From the IMG/VR virus record IMGVR_UViG_3300008108_000012: a stretch of DNA of 64,000 bases, one strand, 5' to 3'. This document shows, in pieces, positions 15,515-32,811 of this stretch (its first letter is position 1; every line of letters starts with the position of its first letter). A program made the translations under genes and the position numbers. The DNA is from an uncultured virus (IMG/VR IMGVR_UViG_3300008108_000012) (Duplodnaviria; Heunggongvirae; Uroviricota; Caudoviricetes). Below the pieces are notes generated by a model. It worked only from the letters and a program-made list of their open reading frames with translations, searched no databases and had not been told where the DNA came from.

Positions 15515-15873
15515 TCTTCCTCCACCGTCGGCTTGTACATACTAGCGAATTTCTTGACGCGCCAATCATCGCGGAAGATGAGCTCGAGTGACGTGTACTG
15601 CTTGCCGAGGTCATTCCCACCCATGTGGAACTCGGACTGAGAGCATCCCAGTACTGCCTTGATGGCTTTCTGTGCTCCGTGGCCGGCGATGCCGCGTGTG
15701 ATGGCCTGGCGGCGGCTGTGGGTCAATTCAGGGCGGCGGCCGCGACCCGACCAAAATGTATCCACCCAAACAGTAAAGACCTCGAGTATGGAACTTTCTG
15801 TCACGGAAGAAAAGTATGGGAGATTTTCTACCTGAACTTTTTTACCCGACAATTTTTTGTGCGCCAAAATCAA
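15511..15873 (-). CDS. Replication initiator C-terminal-like protein
   Basis: LT..R...I.......G...AI.AV.GC..S.FHMG.N...Y..LELIFR pattern; start uncertain. Confidence 0.5.
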   Translation of the reverse strand: MILAHKKLSGKKVQVENLPYFSSVTESSILEVFTVWVDTFWSGRGRRPELTHSRRQAITRGIAGHGAQKAIKAVLGCSQSEFHMGGNDLGKQYTSLELIFRDDWRVKKFASMYKPTVEEE

Positions 15874-15891
15874 TTACTCCTTCTACCCGAC

Positions 15892-15960
15892 AATTAGTAC
15901 TACAACATATTGGTAGGGAGTTGTAGTACTAATTAAGACTTATCTTACTCATAAGACTTA
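15892..15960. repeat. Perfect 15-bp inverted repeat plus TAAGACTTA direct repeats in an AT-rich intergenic region (candidate origin)
   Basis: AATTAGTACTACAAC 15892-15906 / GTTGTAGTACTAATT 15920-15934; TAAGACTTA at 15934 and 15952. Confidence 0.7.
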
Positions 15961-16396
15961 ATCTATTTACTATTTACGGTTCTAACACAATCAGCGCTAG
16001 CTGATGTCTTAGAATCCAATTACTGTTCAGTACTGTTACCCACCCCCCTATAGTCCCCCCTCCCACGAGGCAGAAGAGTACTAAAAATGAATTAGGGCAG
16101 CACAAATAACGTTGCTGGATTTTGGGCAACGTTTACTGAAGGTTTTAGGCCGGCCTTCGTATGTAGGGGGTGAGCGTAGCAGGCTCGAGTGGGTCACGCA
16201 ACCATGATGTGGGAATTTCTTTGAGCTCTTCCGCCACCGTCAAATGCTAGCCAGCGCTGCGGGCTCGACAGCCCCGACATCCCCGAACATGTGTTCGTAA
16301 TGGTGTACTCTATTCCCCGGGAGGTCCCCTTCCCTCCTAGAGGGTTAAGAGTCCTAGTTGCAGCTTGTGGGTAGGTTGGCTGCACTAGGGCTCCCC

Positions 16397-16882
16397 TCAC
16401 ACCAGTTCTTTTTCGAACCAGCCGTGATTGAGCATTATGCCGATGGCTGCGTAGCCGGCGACATCGAGGATGTTGTCTTTAATCGATTCGTTCTGGGGCT
16501 CTGCAGCTTTTAGGATGAGGTGCTCGAGGCGTGCAATCTTGTCATGGCAGCGCACGATGACGCCGTAGGTCCCAAAGCGGAGAATGTTGTTGTGGCCGTA
16601 ATCGCGCTGCTTACGGATTAGCGTGTCAATTAGCTCCTGCGGTGTAAAGCTATTTCCAGTGTTCGTTGCATAGCGGTAAGCCGTGCGGCCGACGCCGGCC
16701 CAATGAAGAGAAGTACTCTCACTTTCCTTGTTACGCGAGAAGTCTTCTTCGAGGTAGGTAAACGCGAGACGAAGCTCGGCGATAACTATCGCGGGAGGCT
16801 GCTTCGGGAAGTCCATTATCTTCTCGACAGCCGCTGCGGCCGCGTCATTCCAGGTTTCGATGGGGTTAGTTAATGTGTTCAT
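16397..16882 (-). CDS. DUF1599/Nmad1-like nucleotide-modification-associated protein
   Basis: LIRKQRDYG...G..VR..DK.ARL...ES..D...D.AGYA pattern. Confidence 0.75.
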   Translation of the reverse strand: MNTLTNPIETWNDAAAAAVEKIMDFPKQPPAIVIAELRLAFTYLEEDFSRNKESESTSLHWAGVGRTAYRYATNTGNSFTPQELIDTLIRKQRDYGHNNILRFGTYGVIVRCHDKIARLEHLILKAAEPQNESIKDNILDVAGYAAIGIMLNHGWFEKELV

Positions 16883-17187
16883 GCGGTAATACTAGTTCTT
16901 CCGCCACCGTAAAAGAGTTGTACTAGGAACCTTTTTTGGTGGGTTTCTTCTCCAGGATGGCACCAGGGCCGCCAGATAGGAGCTCCATGGTCTGGGGCTT
17001 TCCAGTGTGAGACTTCTTGTTTGCGCAAACAGGTGGAGTCGAGACAGAGACCATCAACTCCACCTTGTTGCTGCACTTTGGGCATTTCCATGCGAACCTC
17101 TTAGACATGGTCCGGGATGGTAGCACCATTTTTGTCAACTGCAGGTGAATAGCGCTACGACGGCCAAAGCGAATATCACTGTGGCCA

Positions 17188-17499
17188 TTATTGTTCGCCT
17201 GCCAGGCTGCGGATGTACTGCAGAATTTCATGACGTTTCTCGTCTGGCTGGTCTGCGTAGACCTTGAACATGATGCTGACGAAGCTCTTAAGTACCTCGA
17301 GCATGCAATCGTTCAGCAGCTGGCCAGCTTCATCGATGAGGTCTTCAATCTCGTCGACGGTCCCAGCAGCGATAATTTCACGACGCCCAGGGTGGTCGAG
17401 GTGCACGCAGCGGATTTGGGGGCTCAGTGGGAACCCCTTCTTTTCCAGGGAGTCCCAGATATAGAGGTCTTCATATGGGTTGGGCATGTCATCAAACAT
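17188..17499 (-). CDS. Hypothetical protein
   Basis: RBS AAAGGA; 103 aa. Confidence 0.6.
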   Translation of the reverse strand: MFDDMPNPYEDLYIWDSLEKKGFPLSPQIRCVHLDHPGRREIIAAGTVDEIEDLIDEAGQLLNDCMLEVLKSFVSIMFKVYADQPDEKRHEILQYIRSLAGEQ

Positions 17500-17516
17500 G
17501 TTGTTCCTTTCTGTAG

Positions 17517-17756
17517 TTACCAGTGCCGCCAGCTGCGGCCCCAGCGGGGAGATGTGTTACGTAGGTAGCGCGCAAAGCGCGGGAGAATCTTTTCCACAAC
17601 CTCGGGGATAAAGATGTGGACAAAGATGTCGAGGCAGCGAATAAAACGACAAGGGCTGCCGAGTTTAAATCGACTTACTGGGGGGAGTTCGAAACGCGGT
17701 AGTTCACGGAGGGTTTCCTTGAGAGTCAATTCACGTGTCAGCATTTGGTGAGTCAT
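17517..17756 (-). CDS. Hypothetical protein
   Basis: 79-aa ORF in the leftward gene run. Confidence 0.5.
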   Translation of the reverse strand: MTHQMLTRELTLKETLRELPRFELPPVSRFKLGSPCRFIRCLDIFVHIFIPEVVEKILPRFARYLRNTSPRWGRSWRHW

Positions 17757-17769
17757 AGTAGCTACTTAG

Positions 17770-17997
17770 TTATGTAATTACAACCTCTTCCACCACCGTA
17801 AAAGAGTTGTCAGCGCTTTTTGGCAGTGGGAGTGTCACTGGCTCCAGGGCCAGAAGGAAACGTTCGACGCTCGAGAGGATTGTCGAGACGTCTTCGGGTG
17901 AGAAAGGTTTGTCAGTCACTGCCAAGGCGGCCGCATGCGAGATGCGTTCTTGTAGTAGCGCTGCAGCGATGACTATCTCGTCGTAGATGTCATCCAT
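17770..17997 (-). CDS. Hypothetical protein
   Basis: Overlaps the upstream gene; its 3' end contains a copy of the 14-mer. Confidence 0.55.
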   Translation of the reverse strand: MDDIYDEIVIAAALLQERISHAAALAVTDKPFSPEDVSTILSSVERFLLALEPVTLPLPKSADNSFTVVEEVVIT

Positions 17998-18232
17998 TTT
18001 CAGGCTCGTCTTTCATCACTCCATACTCCAGAACAGCGTCGAAGACTTCGCCACGCAAACTGTTGAAGGAAACATCTTCCAACTCTGAAACAATCATCGC
18101 CCACTTTTCTGCAGGCAACCACATTTCGTCGTCGGGGTCAAAGTCGAACGACTCTTTGTCAAACAAGAGCACAAAGACGTCGTCGTCGTCATGCATCTCA
18201 TTGATGGCCGCTTTCAGTTCAGAAATCTTCAC
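17990..18232 (-). CDS. Hypothetical acidic protein
   Basis: Coupled ORF in the leftward operon. Confidence 0.6.
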   Translation of the reverse strand: MKISELKAAINEMHDDDDVFVLLFDKESFDFDPDDEMWLPAEKWAMIVSELEDVSFNSLRGEVFDAVLEYGVMKDEPENG

Positions 18233-18543
18233 TTGTACTCATTTCCATATTCGCCTAGGTCACCTGTGCGATTGATTGCTGGGTAAACAGGTCCGTAGCC
18301 ATTTTTGTCGAGCAGGTCGCTGACCATTTCTAGACACTCTCCGTCGGTCGCTAGTTCTCCGTCGATGCGCACAATGCGAATAATTTCCTTGATGATTTCC
18401 TCAGGCGTCATGAGCAACTCTTTCTCTAGTTGTTTTTCTACTTCTATGCACGCGTTACACATTTCTTCTTCACACGTGCAGTTGTCAGGTATCGGGAATT
18501 CCCAAACATCAGCGGGGATGGGAATGTTGTGTACCGCTCTCAT
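18229..18543 (-). CDS. Hypothetical protein
   Basis: 4-bp overlaps with both neighbours. Confidence 0.55.
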   Translation of the reverse strand: MRAVHNIPIPADVWEFPIPDNCTCEEEMCNACIEVEKQLEKELLMTPEEIIKEIIRIVRIDGELATDGECLEMVSDLLDKNGYGPVYPAINRTGDLGEYGNEYK

Positions 18544-18770
18544 TGTTCTTGCAACACTTCATCTAGCGCTTCATAGTCGAGCGATTCGTCTAACCAGGCT
18601 ACGCCGTCTGGGGTTCCTGCTGACGTGTACACAAGATAGTTAGTTGCGAAATCACGGTACGTCACTTCCTTATCAAGGCTTATGACCATGTTGTACAAAA
18701 ATTCGTCATTCATTAGCCACAAGGCCACGTTCCACGTTGCGTGGTTTTTCCATCCGTTGTAATCGCTCAT
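18540..18770 (-). CDS. Conserved phage hypothetical protein (YNGWxNxxTWNVALW family)
   Basis: MSDYNGWKNHATWNVALWL...TPDGV; ATG at 18770 overlaps the upstream stop. Confidence 0.7.
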   Translation of the reverse strand: MSDYNGWKNHATWNVALWLMNDEFLYNMVISLDKEVTYRDFATNYLVYTSAGTPDGVAWLDESLDYEALDEVLQEQ

Positions 18771-19237
18771 GCATCCACTCCACAGTTTGCGCAATACGAG
18801 TCGTACTCGTGATTGCATAAAACCTTCTCAATAATTTTTGGCTCCACTGTGCCGTAGTCAAGGCTGTAACAGTGAATCTCTACAGGGTCGTTTTCTTTAG
18901 CGACGATGACGTAGATGTATTCCGCATAGCACTCGATTGCTTCTTCAAACGTCTTTATGAACGGTTCGTTTGGCGTATCGGTGTAATACTTGCCCCAGTA
19001 TTCTTTTATCTCTATGTGGTTGCCGAACGTGTCGTCATCTTCTTGCTGAAATGGGCTAAGGAAAGACCAGCCGTTATGTTCGTCAAGTAGGACACGACAT
19101 GTTGTTTCGTACCCGTCACGACGGATGAACTCGGAAAGAACGCCCATCATGTGTGTGGGGTATCCATCCCAGTGGACATAGCGCCCCTCTAGTTCGCCGT
19201 TTTCCAACTGGCGTGCAACAACTGAACGAGTTGCCAT
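18767..19237 (-). CDS. Conserved phage hypothetical protein (YxHWDGYP family)
   Basis: MATRS...YVHWDGYP...EYIY. Confidence 0.7.
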   Translation of the reverse strand: MATRSVVARQLENGELEGRYVHWDGYPTHMMGVLSEFIRRDGYETTCRVLLDEHNGWSFLSPFQQEDDDTFGNHIEIKEYWGKYYTDTPNEPFIKTFEEAIECYAEYIYVIVAKENDPVEIHCYSLDYGTVEPKIIEKVLCNHEYDSYCANCGVDA

Positions 19238-19398
19238 TATTCTTCCCCCTTTATGATTTCGACGGTGATGTTTTCCATGTGTGGACCAAAATCTTCTGTG
19301 TTGCGATTGCTATAGAAGAAATCGTCAATCATGCAGTTCAGCACCTCGTACGGGTCTACCTCGTCTGGTACCGACAGTTTGATAAGAATCTCTTTCAT
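19237..19398 (-). CDS. Hypothetical protein, 53 aa
   Basis: MKEILIKLSVPDEVDPYEV..., coupled to its neighbours; below the ORF-track cutoff. Confidence 0.5.
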   Translation of the reverse strand: MKEILIKLSVPDEVDPYEVLNCMIDDFFYSNRNTEDFGPHMENITVEIIKGEE

Positions 19399-19401
19399 TG
19401 T

Positions 19402-19554
19402 TTATTCCTCTTCTTCGTCGTCTGGCATACAGTTGATGCAGGTGTAGATGATGATTGCGGGCTTGACATCGTCTTTGATGCTCAGCATCCCGTAGTACGG
19501 GTTCCAAGTGTCTTTGCACTTGTGGCAGTTCCAGTAGGTCAGTTCGCCTGACAT
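19402..19554 (-). CDS. Small zinc-ribbon protein, 50 aa
   Basis: MSGELTYWNCHKC...CINC; RBS AAGGGG. Confidence 0.55.
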   Translation of the reverse strand: MSGELTYWNCHKCKDTWNPYYGMLSIKDDVKPAIIIYTCINCMPDDEEEE

Positions 19555-19658
19555 GTGTTCCCCTTTGATAGTTAGTAGTTAGTAGTTGTGGGGTGCACGC
19601 TACACCCCACTTAGCCATTTTTGCAAGTGGCTACTGCTAGATTATTTTGTGACTTTGG

Positions 19659-19868
19659 TCACGCCATAACTTTGACACGGTGGCGCTCCACCCATACCTC
19701 GCCCTTGCCGTTTAGTGGCTTGACGAGATAGTCAATGTGTCCGAAGCGGACACGCACGTCAGCAATCTTCACGCCGACGTCTAGCCCTTCCATTGAAAGC
19801 ACGCCGACTTCACCACGTGCTGTCTCAGGCTTGATTTTCTCTACCTGCTGTTTGTCATAGGTTTCCAC
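19659..19868 (-). CDS. Hypothetical protein
   Basis: RBS AAGGAG with GTG start. Confidence 0.6.
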   Translation of the reverse strand: METYDKQQVEKIKPETARGEVGVLSMEGLDVGVKIADVRVRFGHIDYLVKPLNGKGEVWVERHRVKVMA

Positions 19869-20062
19869 TGCTTCTCCTTTTCTGTAGTGGTGACCTAAAA
19901 GTTATCCAGTACACCTGACAAACACAACACGAAAGGCCAAACTTTTCTCGAGGGCCACGTGTCATCCACCACCGTCTGGTTGTAGCCCCGTTACCGGCAG
20001 CGGCCCCGCGGGGCTTCTGGGGTTCCGCCGCAGCCGGCAGCCGGTCGAGTAGTGTCAAGAGT

Positions 20063-20443
20063 ATGAACCGATGGGACAAAAACATTCAAGCACTATCCGC
20101 CTATGTTGCCGAGAACGGCACAGCACTCGTACCGACCTCGTACAAATGTTTAGTGGACGGCGAGACGGTATCGCTGGGGTCGTGGGTGACCTATGTGCGT
20201 ATCAAGTACCGCGCTGGAACGCTTCAGATGGAACGCATGGCTCAGATGGAAAACTTCCCTGGTTGGACATGGGGTCCTTGTAAGCCTGGACCGATGGGTA
20301 ACCCTGACCGTGACAAGCAGATGGTCGCTATGCGTCAGGCTGGCAAGTCACTCCAAAGCATCGGAGACGAATACGGCTTGTCAAGGCAACGAGTTCATCA
20401 AATCCTAAATCGCATGGGACATCGGGAAACCGCTAGTGCCTAG
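20063..20443 (+). CDS. Helicase-associated (HA)-like domain plus sigma-70 region 4-like HTH protein
   Basis: W.....L..Y....G...VP.....LG.WV...R; SLQSIGDEYGLSRQRVHQI. Confidence 0.7.
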   Translation: MNRWDKNIQALSAYVAENGTALVPTSYKCLVDGETVSLGSWVTYVRIKYRAGTLQMERMAQMENFPGWTWGPCKPGPMGNPDRDKQMVAMRQAGKSLQSIGDEYGLSRQRVHQILNRMGHRETASA

Positions 20444-20660
20444 ACACCCTGAAGTAAAAAAAGAACCACGACCATCTCTACTTATCGCTTTAGGCGGAGT
20501 AGGGATAGCGGGTTCTTTTTATGGAAGTATTCTTTGGGTTGTGTTGTGGTTTGTTCGTTCTGCTGACATCGCAGAATGGAACGCCCCTTATTGGAAGTGT
20601 GCTATGACTGCCCTTGCCGTAAATGCCTTGCGCCTTTACGACAAAAAGGTATTCGACTAA
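20436..20660 (+). CDS. Small membrane protein
   Basis: Hydrophobic segment; overlaps the previous gene. Confidence 0.5.
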   Translation: MPRHPEVKKEPRPSLLIALGGVGIAGSFYGSILWVVLWFVRSADIAEWNAPYWKCAMTALAVNALRLYDKKVFD

Positions 20661-20695
20661 GCCTCTTCCGCCACCGTCAAAGAGTTGTCCTCGTC

Positions 20696-20920
20696 TTATT
20701 CGGACTGACGGAACACCATCAGTCCTGCGACTGCTGTGCTGTCAATGTGCGTTGGGTCTGCGAGTGCGATACCTGTCACCCACGCTTCTTTCGGTAGTGG
20801 CTGTGTCGGGTCATCACCCACAATGCCACGCACCTTCTGTATCGCTTCGCTAATCGCTTCGCCATCTGTGTCGGCTTCTACATCTACGCCGACCATGACC
20901 TGAACACGGTACTTTGCCAT
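20696..20920 (-). CDS. Hypothetical protein
   Basis: RBS AAGGA before MAKYRVQV. Confidence 0.6.
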   Translation of the reverse strand: MAKYRVQVMVGVDVEADTDGEAISEAIQKVRGIVGDDPTQPLPKEAWVTGIALADPTHIDSTAVAGLMVFRQSE

Positions 20921-21087
20921 TGTTTCCTTCTTTCTGCCCGTACCTTCCATACGGGTCGGGTGTCTTTCGTGCCTCTACGGGCTTCCTGTGGGGCGAGTTC
21001 AGGCGAGTGAGTGGCTGAAAGGGGGAAATGCCACCCACTCGCCACGCAATCGGGCAGGCTCACTACTGCGAACCTGCCCGATACGGT

Positions 21088-22623
21088 CTAGCGATAGGTG
21101 AGTTCGTGACCTGTCACGCTCTCGTACACACCTTTCATGTGTGACGGAACGATGGACTTCACTTTCTCGCCCTTTGACATGGCTTTCAGCATTGTGACTG
21201 CCTGCTCAGGTGTCTCACAGGTGTAGATACCGTGACGCTTGATGAGTGCCACGCACTCCATCACTAAGTCCTCACCCCAACTGTCACCCTTGCCTGTGAC
21301 CCCACCATCGGTGACCCAAATGACAGGGGAAGTATTGCGCTGACGCTTTCCGATAGCCCAACGCAAGGCAGGTGCGTCCACTCCGTTGCCACCGTTCGGT
21401 GACGGAAGTTCTTTCACGCACTTGCCCTTGTTGGCGACCACATACAGGTTCGGGCGACTACTGCGCCCACCTGAATACTGCGCCACGAGTGCTGACGGTG
21501 CGCTCAACACCATCTCCATCACTTCATCGTGTTCCAGCGACATAGAACCACTCGTGTCAATGAGTACCACGCCACCTGCGCCCTTCACAGTACGGTCAAA
21601 GATACGGCGTTCAGGGTCGGTGAGTAGGCGAGACATACGGCGTGGGTTACGCCCTGTCTGCGATGAGACACGCTTGCGTCCGATAGCACCCATCACATTA
21701 CGCTCTAACGCTGGTGTGGAGATACGCAGTTCTTCCCACAAGGTCGCACGACCTTTCTTCGGGATAGTTCCACGACCCCAACGGTCATGTGTGAAGTTCT
21801 CGCTTGCCTTCTCTGTCGGAGACTTGCCATCTTCATCTTTGACTTCGCCTGACGGTGCGCCTTCGCCCTCTTTGCCTTCGCCCTCTTTTTGTGGCTGTGG
21901 CTTTCCTGTGGGGTTGTCACACAATGCGCCGACTTGTTCCTCTACCCACTTTGCGTAGTTCTCCACATAGCCAAATCCTGACAGGTGGAGACGAGAGTGA
22001 GTGGCGTGGAGTGATGGAGTAGAACGCTGGTTGTCCATTACAGAGCGAAAGTAGTTCTCGCCTGTGTGGGAAATCGTCTCCAACAGTTTCACCCACGATG
22101 GCTCGTGCTGTGCGACACCACGCAAGTATTGTTCGTATCCTGCCGTGCCACGAAACGCAATAGCGTCCATCACGCACGAGAGAAAGTCGCCCACCTCTGC
22201 TGTGCGCTTTCCTGCGAGATACTCGCTTCCGTCTGAAAGGTGAGTTGTTGGCTCAAATCCTGCGTAAGAACACAGGACATTGACACGCAGTTCCTCGCAC
22301 ACTACGAGCGTAGGTGCTTTGGCGTAGCCACGAGCCACCCACTTCTCAAACTGCTTCGCCGTAGGTGACACCTTTGCGTGTGTCATCTCGTGCGCTCGTA
22401 TCACGCGAGAATGTTCGGTGTCGTACATCGGCACACGCATCTCACGCAAGGTGACTTCCGTTGCTGGTTCACCACGCTTGGGTTGGACATTGACAATGTT
22501 CCAACGCTTCTCTGCGTCTTTCGCTGTGTTGTCTCCACGAGACAACATCTCAGGCTCAGGGTACTGTGGCGTAGTACCCTGAGCGATGTTCGCCGTAATC
22601 GGCGTTCCGTTTGACTTGCTCAC
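21088..22623 (-). CDS. VWA-domain protein with N-terminal HExxH motif (MoxR/CobT-like partner)
   Basis: AHEMTH; MIDAS motif DTSGSMS; VTDG. Confidence 0.8.
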   Translation of the reverse strand: MSKSNGTPITANIAQGTTPQYPEPEMLSRGDNTAKDAEKRWNIVNVQPKRGEPATEVTLREMRVPMYDTEHSRVIRAHEMTHAKVSPTAKQFEKWVARGYAKAPTLVVCEELRVNVLCSYAGFEPTTHLSDGSEYLAGKRTAEVGDFLSCVMDAIAFRGTAGYEQYLRGVAQHEPSWVKLLETISHTGENYFRSVMDNQRSTPSLHATHSRLHLSGFGYVENYAKWVEEQVGALCDNPTGKPQPQKEGEGKEGEGAPSGEVKDEDGKSPTEKASENFTHDRWGRGTIPKKGRATLWEELRISTPALERNVMGAIGRKRVSSQTGRNPRRMSRLLTDPERRIFDRTVKGAGGVVLIDTSGSMSLEHDEVMEMVLSAPSALVAQYSGGRSSRPNLYVVANKGKCVKELPSPNGGNGVDAPALRWAIGKRQRNTSPVIWVTDGGVTGKGDSWGEDLVMECVALIKRHGIYTCETPEQAVTMLKAMSKGEKVKSIVPSHMKGVYESVTGHELTYR

Positions 22624-22629
22624 AATGCC

Positions 22630-26432: not shown

Positions 26433-26705
26433 GAACAGGTGTTCGGTGAGACACATTTGGTGCGACTGTCTCGTGAGACTAACTGGGGGAAAGTGTCTCA
26501 GACTGGGAGAAGGGTCTTCCACCACCGTCAAAGTCCTGTGGGAGCCCCGCGGGACAAAAATCCCGTCCGGGACTTCCGCCCCATCTGTGTTGCCATCGGC
26601 GACATCGGCGACATCGGGTTGCGTTGCTTGCCGACAGCCACTAAGGTATGCCCATGTCATTAGTCTCTATTGTTGTAGTCATCGCACTCATCGCATTGTT
26701 CGCAA

Positions 26706-26759
26706 GTGGCTAATGTCACACAATAACTATTTGACAAGTGGCTACTAACTTTGTAGTCT
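26706..26759 (+). promoter_or_regulatory. Cassette promoter with inverted box
   Basis: GTGGCTAATGTCACA-10-TTGACA-17-TAGTCT. Confidence 0.7.
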
Positions 26760-26788
26760 TAGATTCTCAACTCACAAAAGGGGGAATC

Positions 26789-27145
26789 ATGACTGATTCT
26801 GTCATTGAGTGGGAAGAGGTGAGCAACACTTCAGACGAAGTGGAGTGGGACTTTGCGACAGACTTGTTCGCTGAGGTTGCCAACACGCTCATTGCCCATA
26901 ATGAGGAACTTCACGAAGGCGACACTTGGTGGCGCATTGAGGGATTCCCATTGTGGAGTGGTGGGCTTGACGGTATTTTCCACGCCGATACGCCGATGAA
27001 GTTGTTGGAAAGTATTACCGTTCGTTCGGAATGGTCATTGCGCTACACGCTTGACCCCGAAACAATGGTGCTTACTTGTCACCTCTCTCACCACGATGCA
27101 AGCGGAACTTTTACGGTGAAGGCAATGCCTAATCCAGACCGCTAA
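26789..27145 (+). CDS. Cassette hypothetical protein
   Basis: RBS AAGGGGG; ATG at 26789. Confidence 0.7.
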   Translation: MTDSVIEWEEVSNTSDEVEWDFATDLFAEVANTLIAHNEELHEGDTWWRIEGFPLWSGGLDGIFHADTPMKLLESITVRSEWSLRYTLDPETMVLTCHLSHHDASGTFTVKAMPNPDR

Positions 27146-27167
27146 CAACTGAACAACACGGCGAACT

Positions 27168-27196
27168 GCCCGTCTCCGAAAGGGGGCGGGCTTTTT
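27168..27196 (+). terminator. Intrinsic terminator
   Basis: GCCCGTCTCC-GAAA-GGGGGCGGGC-TTTTT. Confidence 0.8.
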
Positions 27197-27360
27197 GCTT
27201 GCCCAACGACTGCCCGTGCGCCGTCTCCCGCCACCGTCGGAAGGTGCGAGCCCCGGACGGTCGCATCGCAGCGCGGGGCTATCGGGCGCATCTGCGCCGT
27301 CGCCACTCAGTTTCGTCGCCACCTGCCAACTCGCCACCTGTCTGTCACCCCTGTCTCGCC

Positions 27361-27404
27361 TGTGACAAACGACACTTGACAAACTGTGTTATCGCCTGTA
27401 TCTT
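27361..27404 (+). promoter_or_regulatory. Cassette promoter with box
   Basis: TGTGACAAACGACAC-TTGACA-17-TATCTT. Confidence 0.8.
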
Positions 27405-27447
27405 CTACCTTGTAATACACACCAACTACCCATAGGGGGGTACACAA

Positions 27448-28023
27448 ATGGAAGAAGAACAGACACCATCTGAACTATTGGCTTCTGTAATCGCTCGCGC
27501 GATGGAAGTCAAGTACGAGATGTGCGTGGACAACAATGGAATGTGCGATACGCCACCTGTACTGCTCGGTGAACTACCGACAGGCGAAGGCTTCATCGCA
27601 CCCGACTACAACGATGGACACCCAACCGACACCTTGCCGTTGATGCTGTCAGCACTCGCTGAAACGATGATGGCACAGTTCTCATCGGTTCAATGGAAGT
27701 GGCTTGCGTATGTCGTAGAAGGCTACGCAAAGCCAACACACGAAGGGGTGGAGAGCCTGCCCGAAGATTGGAGCCGTGGAATGTACGAAGAAGAGTACAA
27801 GACGAACCCAACAAGCGATGTGCGTGAAGGGCTTATCGTGGGTCTGTATCCGTGGGAAGGACAAGCCATCGGAACAACCGTGTTCTATCGCTACAACGAC
27901 AAGGGCTTGCCTGTCTATGACGAGCCTGAGATGTTGGAAGGCGAGATGGAAGGGACTGTCGCAGACATCTTCAAGGCGTTCACGATGGCGTGTAAGACAA
28001 TCACCAACGCCAAGAACAACTAG
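27448..28023 (+). CDS. Cassette hypothetical protein (apparent paralogue of 47665-48294)
   Basis: RBS AGGGGGG; shared K..CV...G..D.P, V.EG[YW] and S.V.E.L motifs. Confidence 0.75.
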   Translation: MEEEQTPSELLASVIARAMEVKYEMCVDNNGMCDTPPVLLGELPTGEGFIAPDYNDGHPTDTLPLMLSALAETMMAQFSSVQWKWLAYVVEGYAKPTHEGVESLPEDWSRGMYEEEYKTNPTSDVREGLIVGLYPWEGQAIGTTVFYRYNDKGLPVYDEPEMLEGEMEGTVADIFKAFTMACKTITNAKNN

Positions 28024-28040
28024 ACCGTACCCCCTACGGA

Positions 28041-28083
28041 AGGGGGGTCGCCTGCCAAGTACGGTGGGCGACCCCCCTTTTTT
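28041..28083 (+). terminator. Intrinsic terminator
   Basis: AGGGGGGTCGCC...GGCGACCCCCCT-TTTTT. Confidence 0.8.
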
Positions 28084-28164
28084 CGTGTACCCAACCAGCC
28101 CTCTTCCACCACCGTCAAAGCAAACCCGTTGCGCTTAGCAGCCCCGCCCGGTATTATTTATGAG

Positions 28165-28386
28165 ATGTCGTACGTTCGCTATGTGTGTGAGTTCTGTAAT
28201 CACGAAGTCCAGCCAGGGCAAAGTGGAACAATGAAGTTGGTGTTGGCGTGGGTGCGTTCAGACAACAACACAGGAATAAAGGGTGTGAAGAACCAGCACA
28301 AGTACGCTCATTCCATCTGTGTGGAAACAGAGACTAAGCGTGGTGGTAAGCGAGAAGGCTCAAACGGCGAGCAGACGCTGTTTTAG
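28165..28386 (+). CDS. Small zinc-binding protein
   Basis: CEFC...HSIC; TATTAT 7 nt before the ATG (leaderless-like). Confidence 0.6.
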   Translation: MSYVRYVCEFCNHEVQPGQSGTMKLVLAWVRSDNNTGIKGVKNQHKYAHSICVETETKRGGKREGSNGEQTLF

Positions 28387-28429
28387 AGTGCGAACAGCAA
28401 CGCAATCGCAACGAGAACGATGATGGCAG

Positions 28430-28819
28430 TCACTTTGTATCCTTAGATACGAGCACCCAGCCACCTTTGCCGTCTCCGATGTAGGTCTCTTTGCCTTTCC
28501 AACCCCAAGCCCAGCGACAGCATGAAGGGTCAAGGGTACAGTCATCATTACTGTCAAAGTCAGCGTGATGAATGAAGTTCGGGTGACAGCCACCACGAAG
28601 TTTCTCTCCGAGCAACGGAAAAGCATCTAGAAGTTTGACAACGCAGTCGTGACACATACTGATAAAGCGACTTTCATCGCTACCAAGTAGGACGCCCACA
28701 TTGTCGTCAAAGCCACCGTAGTAGCCGAAGTGGTCAATAGGCAAAGACCAGCCCCCGTCAGGAAGGCTGTCTTGTTGTGTGTTCGGTTGCTCTACACCAC
28801 AGGTATCGCAGGTAATCAT
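28430..28819 (-). CDS. Cys-rich cassette protein
   Basis: CDTC...GYYGGF.D...CHDC. Confidence 0.65.
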   Translation of the reverse strand: MITCDTCGVEQPNTQQDSLPDGGWSLPIDHFGYYGGFDDNVGVLLGSDESRFISMCHDCVVKLLDAFPLLGEKLRGGCHPNFIHHADFDSNDDCTLDPSCCRWAWGWKGKETYIGDGKGGWVLVSKDTK

Positions 28820-28827
28820 TGTGTCTT

Positions 28828-29031
28828 TCAGGGTTGGTAGATGTTGTACCCGTATGGGTCGTACAGAGTTGTCGTGGTCTCACACGGGTAGTGAAAATAC
28901 TCGCAGTCAGGGACGCCTTGTTTCTCATCTCCGATAGATGCGATAAGAAATAGAGTTGCGCCGATGAGAGTTGTCCAAAAGACAAACCTCACGAACGAAC
29001 GCACCTTGTAATAGATAGGTGGGTGGCTCAT
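28828..29031 (-). CDS. Small membrane protein (paralogue of 32613-32810)
   Basis: YYKVRSFVR, TM segment, PDCEYFHYPC...DPY. Confidence 0.7.
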   Translation of the reverse strand: MSHPPIYYKVRSFVRFVFWTTLIGATLFLIASIGDEKQGVPDCEYFHYPCETTTTLYDPYGYNIYQP

Positions 29032-29237
29032 TCCTTCTCCCAACTACGGAAGTATTCAGGGTCGCCGACCCAAAATGCGCCTTCACCATTTGCCTTGTTC
29101 AGCCATTCGTCAAGGTTGGCATGAAGGAAGGCACGGTACCCCTCGGTCACCTCATCTGTGTTGTGCTTACAGATGTCCGACTGAACATTGTCGCCATCGG
29201 CATTGGTGTAGATGATTTCTCCACAGAACTCTTTCAT
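29028..29237 (-). CDS. Cassette hypothetical protein, probably leaderless
   Basis: ATG lies 7 nt after -10 TACCAT. Confidence 0.6.
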   Translation of the reverse strand: MKEFCGEIIYTNADGDNVQSDICKHNTDEVTEGYRAFLHANLDEWLNKANGEGAFWVGDPEYFRSWEKE

Positions 29238-29244
29238 GGGGTGA

Positions 29245-29288
29245 ATGGTACAGGTGTCAAGCACACATGACAAGTGGCAGTTGTCACA
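29245..29288 (-). promoter_or_regulatory. Leftward cassette promoter with box
   Basis: TGTGACAACTGCCAC-TTGTCA-17-TACCAT on the minus strand. Confidence 0.75.
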
Positions 29289-29494
29289 TCGTTGAGAGAC
29301 AAGCAAGGGTGAGGTCGTCAAGACGGGGACACATCACGATGAGTTCTTCCACCACCGTCAAATCTCTCTGGGAGCCCCGATGGGCCGCTGCGGCCGTCCG
29401 GGACTTCCGCCCGCACTCGTGCGCCTGCGCCCGTGCGCCCGTGGGAGTTTCTCGGCTCGGCTGTCGGGGTTGGCTCGGACTGCCTCGCCTGTCG

Positions 29495-29538
29495 TGTGAC
29501 AAACGCCACTTGTGTTAGTGCTGTGTTGCCTGTACCCT
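29495..29538 (+). promoter_or_regulatory. Cassette promoter with box
   Basis: TGTGACAAACGCCAC-TTGTGT-17-TACCCT. Confidence 0.7.
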
Positions 29539-29559
29539 GTCAGGTGTAAGGGGGTGATT

Positions 29560-29922
29560 ATGAAAGCAACCAAAACAGACCTATCGCTTATGGCGTTACT
29601 CTGCTCAGACCGTGAAGGTCGCCCGTGCGATACGGGCGAAGTCTTAGCCCAAGTGGGCAAGATGAACTTTCTCGCTGTGTGCGGTGGCAAGTGGGCGAAG
29701 GTTTACGATTCAGGCATGGAGACTGTCGGCGTGTTGATGCTCTGCGGAGAATCTCGCGCGGTGGAAGTCGTGCTAGACCCGTGGGATACCTACACAGTGC
29801 GCCGTGTGCGCCTTGTGACCCGTGGAGAACTGAAGGGTTCAATCGTTGTGGAGTCGCAAGTTTCAGATGTCTATTGTGACAACTTGAGCGAAGTCGTCTA
29901 TTCCGCTTCCTGCTGGAAGTAA
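29560..29922 (+). CDS. Cassette hypothetical protein
   Basis: RBS AAGGGGGTG; ATG at 29560. Confidence 0.7.
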   Translation: MKATKTDLSLMALLCSDREGRPCDTGEVLAQVGKMNFLAVCGGKWAKVYDSGMETVGVLMLCGESRAVEVVLDPWDTYTVRRVRLVTRGELKGSIVVESQVSDVYCDNLSEVVYSASCWK

Positions 29923-29944
29923 CCAACAACCAAAACAACCGAGC

Positions 29945-29978
29945 AAGCCCGCCGTGTGCCCCCCGCACGGCGGGCTTT
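29945..29978 (+). terminator. Intrinsic terminator
   Basis: AAGCCCGCCGTG...CACGGCGGGCTTT. Confidence 0.75.
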
Positions 29979-30397
29979 GCTTTGCCCGTGTGCCTGTGAC
30001 CTTGACCCTTGCCCGTGGTGCGCCGTCTTCCGCCACCGTCAAAGTAAGTGAGATGGGGGCGAGAGCCCCGCTACCCCGCCCCCATCAAGCTCAGCTCAGC
30101 TCGACGGGCACGCTCAGCTCGAGGATTTTCTGCGTTTGTTTTTTGAAAAAGTCACGCTGCGTGGTCAAAGTTTGTCAAAACTCACGGAGAGTGGTCATTT
30201 TTGCTCGACTTTACTTTTTAGTTCGAGAAAAAGCAAGCGAAGAGGGCCAACTTCCGGCTTTCTGGCCAGATGTCCCTGGCAGCCCCGATGCGGCCGCACG
30301 GCCGTCCGGGACTTCTGCCCAGATGGCATCGCCAGACGGAGTTGCTCAGGTTGTCCATCGCTCTTGCTCGGTCAAGCCAAACTCGTGCTCGTCTCGG

Positions 30398-30442
30398 TGT
30401 GACACACGACACGTTGCGACTGTGGCGTACAGGGTGTAGTTT
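30398..30442 (+). promoter_or_regulatory. Cassette promoter with box
   Basis: TGTGACACACGACAC-G-TTGCGA-17-TAGTTT. Confidence 0.7.
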
Positions 30443-30464
30443 GCTATTACCTAAGGAGGGGTTT

Positions 30465-30677
30465 ATGCCGGAGTTCTATCCGGAAGAAACCAAAGTCCAA
30501 AAGTCAAAACGATTTGCTAAATCCCAAGGAAAGATAGTAAAAGCATTTAGTCACACAAAGTGTGGTAGGTGCGGAACCATCATTGGTGAAGGCGTTGAGT
30601 GTATTTGGCTCAATGGAAAAGGTTGCTTCCACAAGCAAGGCGAATGTCCAAAGAAAGAAGAACAACAAGAAGAATGA
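30465..30677 (+). CDS. Small zinc-finger cassette protein
   Basis: RBS AAGGAGG; CGRCG..I..G...W.....H....C. Confidence 0.7.
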   Translation: MPEFYPEETKVQKSKRFAKSQGKIVKAFSHTKCGRCGTIIGEGVECIWLNGKGCFHKQGECPKKEEQQEE

Positions 30678-30724
30678 CAGCGTTGATAGTTGCGCTGGCA
30701 GTTCTTTTATTGTTGGCAATCTGA
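30674..30724 (+). CDS. 16-aa hydrophobic micropeptide MTALIVALAVLLLLAI
   Basis: ATGA overlap with the upstream stop; ends just before the terminator. Confidence 0.55.
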   Translation: MTALIVALAVLLLLAI

Positions 30725-30727
30725 ACG

Positions 30728-30760
30728 AAAGCCCGTCACAGAAATGTGGCGGGTTTTTTT
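30728..30760 (+). terminator. Intrinsic terminator
   Basis: GCCCGTCACA-GAAA-TGTGGCGGGT-TTTTTT. Confidence 0.8.
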
Positions 30761-31160
30761 GTGCCCGTCTTCCACCACCGTCAATGTAAATGAGACTGGG
30801 TCATCAGCCCCGCTGCTAACCCAGTTGATGTCCAGCATCTGAGTTCCTCACGACGTACGACATCGGATTATCAACTTTGTTTTCTTTTGTTTTTTGGAAA
30901 ACGCTCACTCTGCGTGGTCGGAAAGTCAAAAAGTTCACGGAAAGTGGCAAAAACGAAGCGAAAGTCAAGTTCTTTGGAGTTTTTTGCTTGGCGCAAGCCC
31001 CCGTCGCTCACCCGTCGTACGTGCGATGGGTTTTCCCCGCGGTAGCCCCGTTTACCCAGTGCGGGGAAACGGGACTGTTCCGTGGTTTCTGGCCCTGGAC
31101 GGCCCGGCGGCCCGGAAGTCGGACTGGCGCAGCGCAACTCGGACTGACCTGAGGCTCGGC

Positions 31161-31205
31161 TGTGACAAACGACACTTTGACATTTGCGCTTGACACCTGT
31201 AGCCT
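31161..31205 (+). promoter_or_regulatory. Cassette promoter with box
   Basis: TGTGACAAACGACAC-T-TTGACA-17-TAGCCT. Confidence 0.8.
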
Positions 31206-31225
31206 GTAGGCAAGAAGGGGGGGAA

Positions 31226-31393
31226 ATGAAGTTTTATGCCAACATCACGCTCAACATAGATGAGTTTGATGCAGATAACGAAGAAAAAGCAAAAGAAATA
31301 ATAGATTCGTACATCACAAGCCTTGCAAACACTGAAGATGAAAGTCTTTCGTGGCAAGAAATGAACTACGAAGTGAAAGAAGCCACTGAATGA
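31226..31393 (+). CDS. Small acidic cassette protein
   Basis: RBS AAGGGGGGG; ATG at 31226. Confidence 0.65.
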   Translation: MKFYANITLNIDEFDADNEEKAKEIIDSYITSLANTEDESLSWQEMNYEVKEATE

Positions 31394-31446
31394 GCATCGC
31401 CATTACGGCGTTTACTCTTTTTTTGTTGTTCTCCGCCGTGAACTAA
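31390..31446 (+). CDS. 18-aa hydrophobic micropeptide MSIAITAFTLFLLFSAVN
   Basis: ATGA overlap with the upstream stop; ends just before the terminator. Confidence 0.55.
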   Translation: MSIAITAFTLFLLFSAVN

Positions 31447-31451
31447 GAACC

Positions 31452-31484
31452 GCCCGTCCCTGAAAGGGGGCGGGTTTTTCTTTT
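31452..31484 (+). terminator. Intrinsic terminator
   Basis: GCCCGTCCCT-GAA-AGGGGGCGGGT-TTTTCTTT. Confidence 0.8.
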
Positions 31485-31606
31485 CCCCGTCTTCCGCCAC
31501 CGTCGTAAAAGTGCCATCACGAAGGTCGTGAGCCCCGCTGATTTACCAGATGCTCGTGTCTGGTTCGCCAGACAAACCGTGAACTTCGGCGACTCCAACT
31601 CGTGCC

Positions 31607-31650
31607 TGTGACAAACAACACTTGACACTCCTTGTGCTGTTCAGTACACT
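31607..31650 (+). promoter_or_regulatory. Cassette promoter with box
   Basis: TGTGACAAACAACAC-TTGACA-17-TACACT. Confidence 0.8.
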
Positions 31651-31657
31651 CGCCCGT

Positions 31658-31942
31658 ATGCAAATAATCACCACTATCAACGAACCGATACCTTTTATCG
31701 GAACGGTTGATGAAATGTTAGCCAACTACAACACTCACCTATGGTGGCAAGACCCCGAATCGTGGGAATCGGTATGTGACCGCTGCGCCTGTAAAGGTTG
31801 GCACAAGGCTGCCAAGTATCCGTGTGGGACAGAGCCACCTCGCCGTGATGTCGTTGTGTGGGTTGATGCAGAAGGTAATCAGCATCGCAACCACCCGACC
31901 CTTGCTGCTTTGGGTATCGCTAGCGATGAGATTGTAGAGTGA
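31658..31942 (+). CDS. Cys-containing cassette protein, probably leaderless
   Basis: ATG lies 7 nt after the -10 element; THLW...CDRCAC...YPCG. Confidence 0.65.
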   Translation: MQIITTINEPIPFIGTVDEMLANYNTHLWWQDPESWESVCDRCACKGWHKAAKYPCGTEPPRRDVVVWVDAEGNQHRNHPTLAALGIASDEIVE

Positions 31943-31989
31943 CCGCTGTCATTTTGACGGTTGCTGTTTTCTTGCTGCTTGCTGTCTAG
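31939..31989 (+). CDS. 16-aa hydrophobic micropeptide MTAVILTVAVFLLLAV
   Basis: GTGA overlap with the upstream stop; ends before the terminator. Confidence 0.55.
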   Translation: MTAVILTVAVFLLLAV

Positions 31990-32003
31990 TAGATAATCCA
32001 CTT

Positions 32004-32032
32004 GCCGCCCTGCTTAGTCGTGGGGCGGCTTT
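32004..32032 (+). terminator. Intrinsic terminator
   Basis: GCCGCCCTGC...GTGGGGCGGC-TTT. Confidence 0.7.
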
Positions 32033-32547
32033 GTGCTGCCCGTAATCGCCTCGCATCGCCGTCTCTCTGCCCGTCTCGGCGACTTGCGGCTTGATGGTGT
32101 CCCTAAATACCCTGCTTCCAACCTGAGCCTTTCTAGATGTCTAGCGTTGCTCAAAGTTGGAACATCTCAGCCCGTCTTCCGCCACCGTCAGTTTATTGCG
32201 GGTAGTCGCGGGGCTCTCGAGCGCCAGCCGCACGGGGAGTTGCACGGGCGGCAGACCTCAGATGGCATCGGCTTTCGGGCAGTTTTTCGGTTTTCTTATT
32301 TTTTTAGAAACTGAAAAACCCGAAATCCTTTATTTTGGCGACTTCACGAACTTGACTTTTGAGTTTTTCGTGTTATGTTGGCAAACTTTGCCACACCCCC
32401 TTCTTCCGCCCGCGTTAGCCCCGTAAAGCTCGAAGAGCTGCACGGGACTGTCAGTCTTCTGGACGACGGAGTTGTTCTTCGGCTTCGGCTTGTTGCTGGC
32501 TCGGCTTGGAACTTCGGAAGGCTTCGCAACTTTCTTTTCGGAAAGAC

Positions 32548-32810: not shown

Positions 32811-32811
32811 G

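Follow-up and report, generated by a model that had tools for sequence, protein, structure and literature searches.

The cluster A mycobacteriophages L5 and TipsytheTRex carry operator and stoperator sites, which are bound by a monomeric two-domain repressor (PMC9283540). T4-type phages carry promoter-early stem-loop (PeSL) cassettes (PMC2839356, PMC4122927), and Microbacterium phages of cluster EC have an 18-bp asymmetric motif repeated between their genes (PMC7302621); these systems are described here as far as the cited excerpts go. We analysed a 14-mer that is repeated in a 64 kb stretch of DNA from an uncultured phage (64,000 nucleotides, referred to as the window). The motif also occurs outside this phage, being common to a clade of large freshwater whiB/cysH actinophages of about 140–160 kb. 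The interpretation that we favour, and to which we give about an even chance, is that the motif works like a stoperator, as an operator or half-promoter, and that its repeated copies double as crossover points.

The original prediction listed 16 copies, all on the + strand, and every position proved to be right. A search of both strands of the window with CTTCCRCCACCGTM gave 13 exact matches, on the + strand only, while 100 dinucleotide-preserving shuffles of the window gave none. The other three listed copies, recovered on the + strand when up to two mismatches were allowed, are each off by one base: 15516 (CTTCCTCC...), 19963 (CATCC...) and 27225 (CTCCC...). All remaining matches have two mismatches (six, against 1.1 expected, at 9062+, 13770+, 21395−, 36157−, 59825− and 60430+), and the minus strand holds no full copy, as had been claimed. 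The spacing from copy to copy is about 0.7–1.5 kb, and the copies are placed at unit borders and not at a regular interval.

For gene contexts in the window, genes with homologue support in the relative G003 were used, and with these the contexts of the original prediction were confirmed. These lie on the minus strand at 14.5–19.9 kb and 20.7–24.0 kb, and the units at 24–32 kb are mixed. The copy at 15516–15529 (+, CTTCCTCCACCGTC) overlaps the last codons of the minus-strand gene 15511–15873; its reverse complement, GGAGGAAG, stands directly before the ATG of the minus-strand gene 15044–15514 and overlaps the ribosome-binding site. The exact copy at 16228–16241 (+) is intergenic with minus-strand genes on both sides, and two exact copies of the GTA variant, 16898–16911 and 17787–17800 (both +), lie 15 nt and 30 nt upstream of the starts of the minus-strand genes 16397–16882 and 17517–17756 respectively. 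The copy at 19963–19976 (+) is the left border of a unit holding a gene for a 126-residue protein (20063–20443, +) with an HA domain (PF03457) and a sigma-70 region 4 (PF04545), referred to below as the HA + sigma-4 protein. The next, exact, copy (20665–20678, +) occupies the 35 nt that separate two convergent genes, which end at 20660 and 20696.

The six copies that follow are + strand left borders of units designated G to L, and all but that of J are exact. They are found at 24210–24223 (divergent intergenic region; unit G, gene 24460–24915, +), 25001–25014 (between convergent terminators; H, genes 25177–26254, −), 26516–26529 (divergent region; I, gene 26738–27145, +), 27225–27238 (after a terminator at 27168–27191; J, gene 27448–28023, +), 28103–28116 (K, a small + gene ending at 28386 and then minus-strand genes at 28430–29321) and 29346–29359 (divergent region; L, gene 29512–29922, +). 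Four further exact + strand copies complete the series: 30027–30040 after a terminator-like hairpin (29962–29974), 30769–30782 after a terminator hairpin, 31491–31504 after a terminator (31452–31475), and 32176–32189, the last, about 1.5 kb before a helicase gene (33729–35684). The block as a whole adjoins helicase and primase genes. The units have promoters of a separate family (TTGACA, 17 nt, TAnnnT), for example TGTGACAAACGACAC at 24381–24428 (+), with further copies at 27361, 29495, 30398, 31161 and 31607 on the + strand and at 26387–26432 and 29243–29288 on the − strand; in the window their orientation tracks that of the genes. A second short element, AGCCCCG or CGGGGCT, occurs in either orientation (for example at 24233–24239) 21–42 nt downstream of 12 of the 16 window copies, and at about +100 nt from the motif in the inspected contigs of four relatives (19 copies).

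Since the contexts in the window are mixed (convergent, divergent and tandem), motif orientation is independent of local transcription there, as originally proposed. Across the family, however, copies usually stand between tandem genes on the opposite strand. The blocks of G002 and G004 have nearly all of their genes opposite the motif strand, with the copies in the gaps between them, and crude gene calls at 40 non-redundant loci place 100 of 221 copies between two minus-strand genes and a further 29 within the called 5′ portion of such a gene. Polarity in most relatives thus agrees with the dominant direction of transcription. The next minus-strand start codon, on the other hand, may lie anywhere from 0 to 400 nt from the motif. 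Many flanking genes share the motif strand in the window, G003 and G005, and in G002, G004 and G005 genes homologous to those of the window have the reverse orientation with respect to the motif; there is therefore no local rule that ties the motif to the direction of transcription.

These contexts also bear on the idea that the motif acts as RNA, for example by imitating the 3′ end of a tRNA or by signalling ribosome binding or processing. The sequence TCTTCC-R-CCA, which we take to resemble tRNA ends, has R at the would-be discriminator base followed by CCA, and the reverse complement of the 15516 copy is a ribosome-binding site. However, the motif is found in sense, antisense and probably untranscribed contexts, none of the ten tRNAs in the window ends in it, the copies have no common fold, and their distance from start codons is not fixed. 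We consider this explanation very improbable.

Counts over whole genomes gave the same strand bias. Three complete relatives have 9/0, 0/17 and 0/9 copies on the forward/reverse strands, in each case within one block of 16–19 kb (11–13% of genomes of 138–158 kb), and outside its block G001 has a single copy, with one mismatch. In each of 34 multi-copy viral contigs (119 copies in all), the copies share a single strand. When 80 loci were oriented by the HA + sigma-4 gene, the strand of that gene carried 322 copies and the other strand 2; the gene was searched for with a pattern taken from its own HTH, which biases these loci towards conserved HTHs. The canonical motif is missing at 19 of the 80. 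We note that one pair of loci without it, L276 and L279, has a related word that is apparently inverted. When 70 pairs of homologous units from five genomes were compared, identity was 92% over the 14-mer, 59% over the next 14 nt and 69% over the following 60 nt; all 59 copies have CCACCGT unchanged, and the same 14-mer is kept by relatives whose blocks have almost no nucleotide similarity. The comparisons support the view of the motif as a signal that is under selection and strictly polar.

Strict polarity, kept even where genes have flipped, could also indicate a signal at the level of DNA, namely a fork barrier, a Chi/KOPS-like guide, a nick site of the T5/phiKMV type or an injection pause site. 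The copy spacing and the position of the block beside helicase and primase genes are in keeping with this, and known nick consensus sequences are strand-specific. We nevertheless regard it as decidedly improbable. The Chi/KOPS-like signal put forward in the original prediction would act genome-wide, whereas the motif is confined to one block and absent elsewhere, apart from the single imperfect copy in G001; the copies stand at unit borders with irregular spacing, and the promoter geometry described below would be unexpected. Nicking and DNA entry are not supported, as nothing points to them in assembled contigs, which are blind to the ends of molecules.

Read on the bottom strand, the motif is tTGACGGTGGYGGAAGa (consensus tTGACGGTGGcGGAAGA), which consists of a −35-like hexamer, TTGACG, and 11 fixed bases that are conserved as strongly as the hexamer. 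Among 237 unique contexts, TTGACG is followed at 17 or 18 nt by TAnnnT in 27, compared to about 2 at each other offset, although these 27 derive from a few orthologous sites in related genomes and so are not 27 independent cases. Several of them have a start codon 6–7 nt further on. The 16898 copy reads TTTACG, 16 nt, TATTAC on the bottom strand. Judged from sequence, the copies with TAnnnT at 17 or 18 nt appear to be complete leftward promoters. The other 210 contexts have no −10 box at promoter spacing, and none was seen by eye in the ten window copies at 24–32 kb (27225, 28103 and 30769 in detail); promoter function therefore accounts for only a minority of copies. At 20665 the 35-nt gap leaves no room for a promoter.

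The sites with TTGACG and a correctly spaced −10 box, together with the dominant context upstream of leftward genes, could mean that the copies are only remnants or weak versions of a single type of early promoter, with no special binder. T4 PeSLs, which are described in the cited excerpts as conserved promoters that act as crossover points, offer a parallel (PMC2839356, PMC4122927). We think this unlikely, and we also doubt the accompanying proposal that uniformity stems from gene conversion or recombination between copies plus the action of the host sigma-A region 4 on TTGACG. To our knowledge, host sigma factors do not read the spacer of bacterial promoters in a manner that would be expected to conserve the 11 bases after the hexamer as strongly as the hexamer itself. 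Promoter-less copies are intact while their flanks fall to 59–69% identity, and the flanks have not been homogenised, as one would expect from conversion tracts. In addition, the 20665 copy, between convergent gene ends, is retained in G003.

The best candidate for a protein that binds the motif is the HA + sigma-4 protein. The motif blocks of the window, G002, G003, G004 and G005 all have its gene, always on the motif strand, as do three of five further fragments; in several lineages a motif copy follows its stop codon. The structure was predicted with a pLDDT of 84, and for the C-terminal part the best local match among structures is a sigma region 4 in complex with −35 DNA (3n97_A; TM-score 0.73 normalised to the target, over 47 columns). 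Both protein binding and the identity of the binder are inferred.

Alignment of five related genomes showed that whole units have been reshuffled at the motif, with the orders EFGHIJKL, EFGHMJKL, EFJHGOM, EFGHMIJK and EFGHJKIL. The units hardly vary in length, and none is inverted. Of 28 comparisons with different left neighbours, 10 have homology that begins between 17 and 1 nt before the motif start, 4 of them exactly 1 nt before it, and 15 start inside the unit and so cannot place the breakpoint. Four left-border comparisons have homology reaching 46–169 nt left of the motif, 169 nt being the maximum. Where the left neighbours are the same, homology extends at least 90 nt left of the motif in 31 of 41 comparisons. 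At the right ends, 17 of 26 comparisons lose homology 13 to 71 nt beyond the start of the right-hand motif, and none extends further than 71 nt. By this test, which the original prediction had suggested, the motif does partition the accessory block into units whose content and order change at it.

Such reshuffling might be the work of a dedicated integron-like site-specific recombination system, in which the motif is the core site, a phage enzyme unrecognisable by sequence cuts and rejoins there, and the units are excised and inserted as circles. The HA + sigma-4 protein might be the DNA-targeting partner of the enzyme, in line with a weak, sub-threshold match of its HTH to the resolvase HTH_7 family (E 0.007), and the single-strand polarity would be a mechanistic requirement. 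Movement of units uninverted and with their length kept, the onsets of homology so close to the motif, the absolute polarity (322 to 2), and conservation far above that of the flanks even at promoter-less sites are all in its favour, and fourteen bases are short for homologous exchange. Against this, no integrase is found in the window, as originally noted, or in the three complete relatives: searches of G001–G005 for Phage_integrase, Resolvase and Y1_Tnp gave no match, while the positive controls responded. The sole HNH protein is a small one adjoining the terminase in G003, the usual place of a packaging helper, and no inverted repeat or hairpin common to all copies was found. The units have promoters and terminators of their own, and the bottom strand shows promoter geometry. 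Moreover, distant relatives differ in gene orientation with respect to the motif, which is at odds with units that always travel with their site. We therefore hold a dedicated system to be rather unlikely.

The stoperator-like reading that we prefer would treat the 14-mer as the top-strand view of a conserved bottom-strand element, a shared operator or half-promoter of the whiB/cysH actinophage clade. In a block of small genes beside the replication genes, a copy stands at almost every border between transcription units, all in one direction: that of the dominant, probably ancestral, leftward transcription, and opposite to the sole conserved rightward gene, HA + sigma-4. At a few orthologous sites with a −10 box at 17–18 nt, the element would be a complete leftward promoter. 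Copies without this box would most likely be protein-binding sites in the manner of L5 operators and stoperators, for example acting at unit borders as a polar block to leftward transcription. Because 15–20 identical bases stand in direct orientation at every border, they could serve as crossover points for general recombination, presumably through the Rad52-family annealing protein of these phages (G003 encodes a Rad52/22-family protein), so that whole units bounded by two copies would be exchanged, dropped or rearranged from one phage to its relatives, in the way of T4 PeSLs. Counting against this step, 14–20 bases are short for efficient homologous recombination.

L5 stoperators had been set aside as an analogue, yet they appear to be the closest functional one, given the bottom-strand TTGACG, the copies that look like complete leftward promoters, and the agreement of polarity with the prevailing transcription in most relatives. 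Their consensus, which we take to be GGTGGMTGTCAAG, also has a −35-like hexamer on one strand together with GGTGG. As far as the cited excerpt describes them, both systems have many copies of asymmetric 13–14 bp sites, uniformly oriented, at promoters and in short intergenic gaps of actinobacteriophages, with a small protein of two DNA-binding modules that is the known binder there and the suspected one here (PMC9283540). They differ in sequence and in the strand arrangement of the two halves, and the candidate protein here comes from other families. The present phages have no integrase or other temperate sign; their sites lie in one block instead of being spread over the genome, are oriented independently of local transcription in the window, and coincide with rearrangement breakpoints.

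With T4 PeSLs the motif shares the arrangement of short conserved regulatory sequences that flank small uncharacterised genes in a hyperplastic region and act as crossover points where related phages undergo insertion, deletion, replacement and shuffling, and in neither system, to the extent covered by the cited excerpts, is there a dedicated recombinase (PMC2839356, PMC4122927). A PeSL, as described there, is a complete strong promoter plus a terminator stem-loop that points with the genes (PMC2839356, PMC4122927), whereas here only the −35 and spacer are conserved, most copies lack a −10 box, the units have their own, different promoter family, and polarity is kept even against gene direction. 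Host phylum and phage lineage are unrelated.

Like integron attC arrays, the block has sites in one orientation bounding gene units that are reordered uninverted, with gene orientation variable within the unit; unlike them, it has no IntI-type tyrosine recombinase and no attC-like imperfect palindrome, and its units carry their own promoters and terminators. The cluster EC motif resembles the present one in that both are asymmetric (14–18 bp), uniformly oriented and repeated about a dozen times in short intergenic gaps, as far as the cited excerpt goes (PMC7302621). The EC motif is placed there at a set 21–30 (probably bp) from the presumed downstream gene (PMC7302621), whereas in the whiB/cysH actinophages the spacing is loose, the orientation may oppose the local genes, and the copies lie at rearrangement borders.

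The motif is a polar 14-mer for which the original prediction listed 16 sites between 15516 and 32189, all on the + strand, and every one of these positions and orientations was reproduced. The 64-kb window contains 13 exact matches to CTTCCRCCACCGTM, all on the + strand, while 0 of 100 shuffled controls contained any match. The copies at 15516, 19963 and 27225, also on the + strand, were recovered by a mismatch-tolerant search of the window and are each one base off the pattern. No full copy was found on the minus strand of the window. The gene contexts described for the copies were also borne out, using genes that have intact homologues in a relative: the genes at 14.5–19.9 kb and 20.7–24.0 kb are on the minus strand, and the motif-to-motif segments (units) between 24 and 32 kb occur in both orientations. 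The copy at 20665 (+) occupies a 35-nt gap between two convergent gene ends, with no room for a promoter. The motif is a real feature, statistically unambiguous, and it extends through a phage clade. Just left of the block of small genes that carries it, a two-mismatch copy, GTTCCACCACCGCC (13770–13783, +), lies within an HslV-like peptidase gene and may reflect chance or decay of a former copy.

The window comes from a large phage and carries 10 tRNAs along with tail, capsid, replication and PAPS reductase genes. A megablast search of the block against a phage collection gave no match, the remainder of the window matched at tRNAs only, and an Rfam search of the window returned nothing beyond the 10 tRNAs. 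Five related genomes, G001–G005, were compared. G001 is the same phage (99.9% identity) and is therefore uninformative on breakpoints; its sole structural difference from the window is at 14335–14399, where the alignment blocks meet with a gap of about 60 nt in a WhiB-like gene. G003 is a complete relative of 137.8 kb, which encodes two WhiB proteins, an Rpf-like transglycosylase, SSB, ParB_N, a Rad52/22-family protein and APS kinase. This gene set is the signature of the whiB/cysC/cysH freshwater actinophages, which PMC10914622 describes from lake metagenomes. The sequencing runs that contain the block carry lake or freshwater metagenome labels or, in some cases, fungus metagenome labels.

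Several further features of these genomes were observed. G003 has two giant open frames of 2459 and 3462 amino acids (38628–46007 and 50408–60796), the longer of which contains a NUDIX-like stretch and three PHROG families of unknown function, and it also encodes proteins of 1713 (with an exonuclease domain) and 1698 amino acids. The PAPS reductase gene is common to the window (36242–37393, −) and G003, where the regions listed with this sulfur and auxiliary gene observation are 121976–122728 and 124422–125903; the auxiliary metabolic genes of G003 also include APS kinase, a tryptophan halogenase and two 2OG-Fe(II) oxygenases. In the window, a 45–60 nt stretch at 26159–26221, encoding the N-terminus of a 197-residue protein (25661–26254, −), is the sole matching part of many metagenomic contigs, and summed depth in its bin reaches 76 in one run; this short segment seems to be widely shared with other genomes.

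We then considered how the motif is distributed across the family. An exact scan of viral contigs matched at least 188 stretches; the chance expectation for a 15-mer in a collection of that size is estimated at a few hundred matches, and single matches are probably chance. Among multi-copy viral contigs, none of 34 (119 copies) had the motif on both strands. The three complete genomes with terminal repeats (138–158 kb) contain 9, 17 and 9 copies, on one strand each, and every set lies within one 16–19 kb block. This confinement rules out a genome-wide polar signal of the Chi/KOPS type, which the original prediction had entertained; motifs of that type occur throughout the replicon, and their strand bias is linked to replication or to DNA ends. 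Single-strand interruptions at a consensus occur in the virion DNA of T5 and phiKMV-type phages; nothing in the assembled contigs compared, in which molecule ends are not visible, points to the nicking or DNA-entry parts of the same interpretation.

A larger sample was obtained from loci encoding homologues of the HA + sigma-4 protein, the 126-residue product of window 20063–20443 (+). In the best 80 of about 300 such loci, oriented by this gene and counted with up to one mismatch, 322 copies are on the same strand and 2 on the opposite strand. At least one copy is present in 61 of these 80 loci; some of the 19 others have variants such as TTTACGCCACCGTC, and one pair among them has a related word that is apparently inverted. 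In distant relatives, genes homologous to those of the window point the other way with respect to the motif: judged from sequence, genes have been flipped while the orientation of the motif stayed. That the polarity of 322 to 2 held where genes were flipped calls for a constraint other than local transcription.

The arrangement of the units was compared by aligning the relatives. The window and G003 share 70–80% nucleotide identity; the two are collinear over the left part of the block and differ in the order of the units at 24–30 kb, each motif-to-motif unit having one counterpart of nearly equal length. In five clade genomes, the order of units after the common E and F is GHIJKL, GHMJKL, JHGOM, GHMIJK and GHJKIL, and no inverted unit occurs among them. 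Of 28 left borders with differing neighbors, 10 have homology that begins between 17 and 1 nt ahead of the motif (exactly 1 nt in 4) and 15 have it beginning inside the unit, and it reaches at most 169 nt leftward from the motif; where the left neighbors are the same, it extends at least 90 nt left of the motif in 31 of 41. Of 26 right borders with differing neighbors, 17 show homology ending 13 to 71 nt beyond the first base of the right-hand motif, and none shows it past 71 nt; with the same neighbors, it continues to at least 91 nt in 26 of 43. The original prediction held that the motif bounds shufflable cassettes and proposed just such an alignment; since units are permuted and homology breaks at the motif, the result favors the cassette reading. 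About 55 nt of leftward homology beyond the copy at 24210 arises from a low-complexity run of GCACAC/GGGCAGGCGCACA repeats just left of that copy (24138–24200), a similar run being present left of the homologous G003 copy. A flank-pair network over 119 copies gave many one-sided matches and was dropped in favor of the whole-unit comparison, because shared terminators confound it.

Four runs, from four studies, supplied assembled contigs, and these largely keep the order of the window. In the left part, three stretches are replaced (17998–18244, 19242–19264 and 19380–19588), and they are away from the motif. Neighboring PeSLs of T4-type phages exchange with one another to give mini-circles; here, none of the 8 joints listed connects two motif copies. 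One (a single contig, with a 23-nt side) runs from 8 nt past the 15516 copy to 33825, where no copy is near, and the other seven are away from the motif. Among the 24 of 107 loose ends listed, two single-contig ends from one run lie at motif edges (25016 and 28101), and are a weak hint only of breakpoints at the motif.

Shuffling of the units may need no special enzyme, and G003 encodes a Rad52-family annealing protein. T4 PeSLs are a precedent, being regulatory repeats at which crossovers occur without a recombinase (PMC2839356; PMC4122927). An alternative is a new integron-like cassette system in lytic phages with the motif as its recombination site: a protein of no known recombinase family, possibly guided to the 14-mer by the HA + sigma-4 protein, would excise and insert promoter–gene–terminator units in one polarity. 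In its favor are left borders that are sharp, the fact that no inversions occur, and a shared sequence that is short; if it were true, these phages would have an integron-like means of trading accessory genes without any known recombinase. Integrons themselves differ: Phage_integrase (PF00589; the IntI tyrosine recombinase family), Resolvase and Y1_Tnp are all absent from G001–G005, where positive controls responded (in 14 of 14 genomes for PF00589), and in place of the imperfect inverted repeat of attC there is a non-palindromic 14-mer whose copies have no common fold. The sole small HNH in G003 adjoins the terminase. We regard the integron-like system as improbable, and prefer shuffling by general recombination at a site that probably has a regulatory function.

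The bottom-strand consensus of 237 unique contexts, tTGACGGTGGcGGAAGA, combines a −35-like hexamer with an equally conserved stretch. TAnnnT occurs 17 or 18 nt past the hexamer in 27 of the 237, compared with about 2 per offset elsewhere; these contexts come from few orthologous sites, typically two per genome, and are therefore not independent. Some of the 27 have a start codon 6–7 nt further on, which is the geometry of leaderless actinobacterial promoters. No −10 peak is found on the + strand downstream of the motif, and a promoter in the + direction was therefore rejected. In G002 and G004, nearly all block genes are opposite to the motif strand, with the copies in the gaps between them. 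Using crude gene calls made for this analysis, 221 copies from 40 non-redundant loci were assigned to contexts: 100 between two minus-strand genes, 29 within the called 5′ part of a minus-strand gene, 29 between convergent gene ends, 28 between divergent gene starts, 18 between two plus-strand genes, 5 within a plus-strand gene and 12 at a locus edge. The polarity thus fits the dominant leftward transcription of the block, leftward being opposite to the motif strand.

Copies that lack a −10 box are under constraint as well. Across 70 pairs of homologous units, identity is 92% in the 14-mer, 59% in the next 14 nt and 69% in the 60 nt after those, and CCACCGT is unchanged in 59 of 59 copies. The simplest account is that the motif would be an operator common to real leftward promoters and to promoter-less border sites. 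Sites both at promoters and at promoter-less positions have a precedent in the L5 operators and stoperators (PMC9283540). The promoter-less copies may act as a polar block to leftward transcription, which would account for three placements: between convergent ends, behind the HA + sigma-4 gene, and to the right of every + unit.

Three other properties were looked for and rejected. The spacing from motif to start codon is not fixed, being broadly spread, with an artificial peak made by the GTG within the motif. There is no RNA or DNA fold common to all copies, hairpins adjoining the motif at some copies only (z-scores −3.6 to +0.6). A tRNA 3′-end mimic was dropped because no tRNA in the window ends in the motif.

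Other repeated elements are found close to the motif. A second promoter family in the window consists of TGTGACAAACGACAC followed by TTGACA, 17 nt and TAnnnT, and its orientation follows the gene: it is directly upstream of unit genes at 24381–24428, 27361–27404, 31161–31208 and 31607–31650 (+) and at 26387–26432 and 29243–29288 (−), and from its sequence probably serves the units as their own promoter, with an operator upstream. The window contains AGCCCCG or its complement CGGGGCT at 20 places, of which 19 are in the 16–33 kb region (16270–32994). Of the 16 motif copies, 12 are followed 21–42 nt downstream by this heptamer (for example at 24233, 25039, 26543, 28140 and 30064), which lies in a hairpin loop, in a stem, or 5 nt ahead of a TATTAT box. 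In contigs of four relatives (19 copies), it follows most copies by about 100 nt and can face either way. Several relatives (for example locus L096) have an intergenic palindrome close to CTGGATAAATTTATCCAG about 40–60 nt downstream of the motif, which by its sequence looks like the operator of a dimeric regulator.

All genomes examined encode within the block the HA + sigma-4 protein, which consists of an HA domain and a sigma-70 region 4 and is the best candidate for the motif binder. The sigma-4 fold would fit the TTGAC half-site, and the second domain could read the other half. The best local structural match of its predicted structure, a confident model (pLDDT 84), is to sigma region 4 on −35 DNA; the structure search gave no PDB match at E ≤ 0.001, the weak matches being mostly sigma factors, and a PDB sequence search gave nothing meaningful. 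Variants of the protein and of the motif both follow phage relatedness, and the locus search is biased towards conserved HTHs, so that these variants provide no independent test of covariation. WhiB proteins bind sigma-A region 4, and the phage sigma-4-like protein could therefore be a partner or decoy for the phage WhiB proteins. Each genome has several WhiB-family genes (window 14104–14535, +; G003 67583–67882 and 82226–82543), and the PDB matches of the HA + sigma-4 model include WhiB3–sigma-4 complexes.

A search of literature other than subscription journals and supplements did not turn up the exact motif strings. The motif was compared with known systems by its properties. Like the L5-type operators and stoperators, which are asymmetric multi-copy sites of about 13 bp at promoters and in short gaps, it is present in many copies (16 in the window and 9–17 per relative), some at a promoter position and the rest in intergenic gaps. 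The L5-type orientation with transcription holds in G002, in G004 and for 100–129 of 209 classifiable copies, but the + units of the window, G003 and G005 break this rule. L5-type sites also belong with a gp71-like monomeric repressor and temperate immunity, whereas the three complete genomes have no integrase family and the candidate binder matches HA and Sigma70_r4. A T4 PeSL is a complete sigma-70 early promoter with a terminator stem-loop, whereas the motif has a −10 box at promoter spacing in only 27 of 237 contexts and hairpins at some copies only; it resembles PeSLs in that breakpoints of indels, replacements and shuffling fall at the element. The large whiB/cysH phages of freshwater actinobacteria have been seen almost exclusively in metagenomes (PMC10914622). 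Their hosts are among the most abundant lake bacteria, and the motif provides a sequence handle on how these phages arrange and trade accessory genes: it is easily scanned and marks exchangeable units directly in metagenomic contigs, and its polarity despite flipped genes makes it a clean test case. Stoperator-like operators, from temperate mycobacteriophages, and PeSL-like crossover sequences, from T4-type phages, have been described separately; the motif is best filed as joining these two known kinds of element, combined here in a third, unrelated and apparently lytic lineage.
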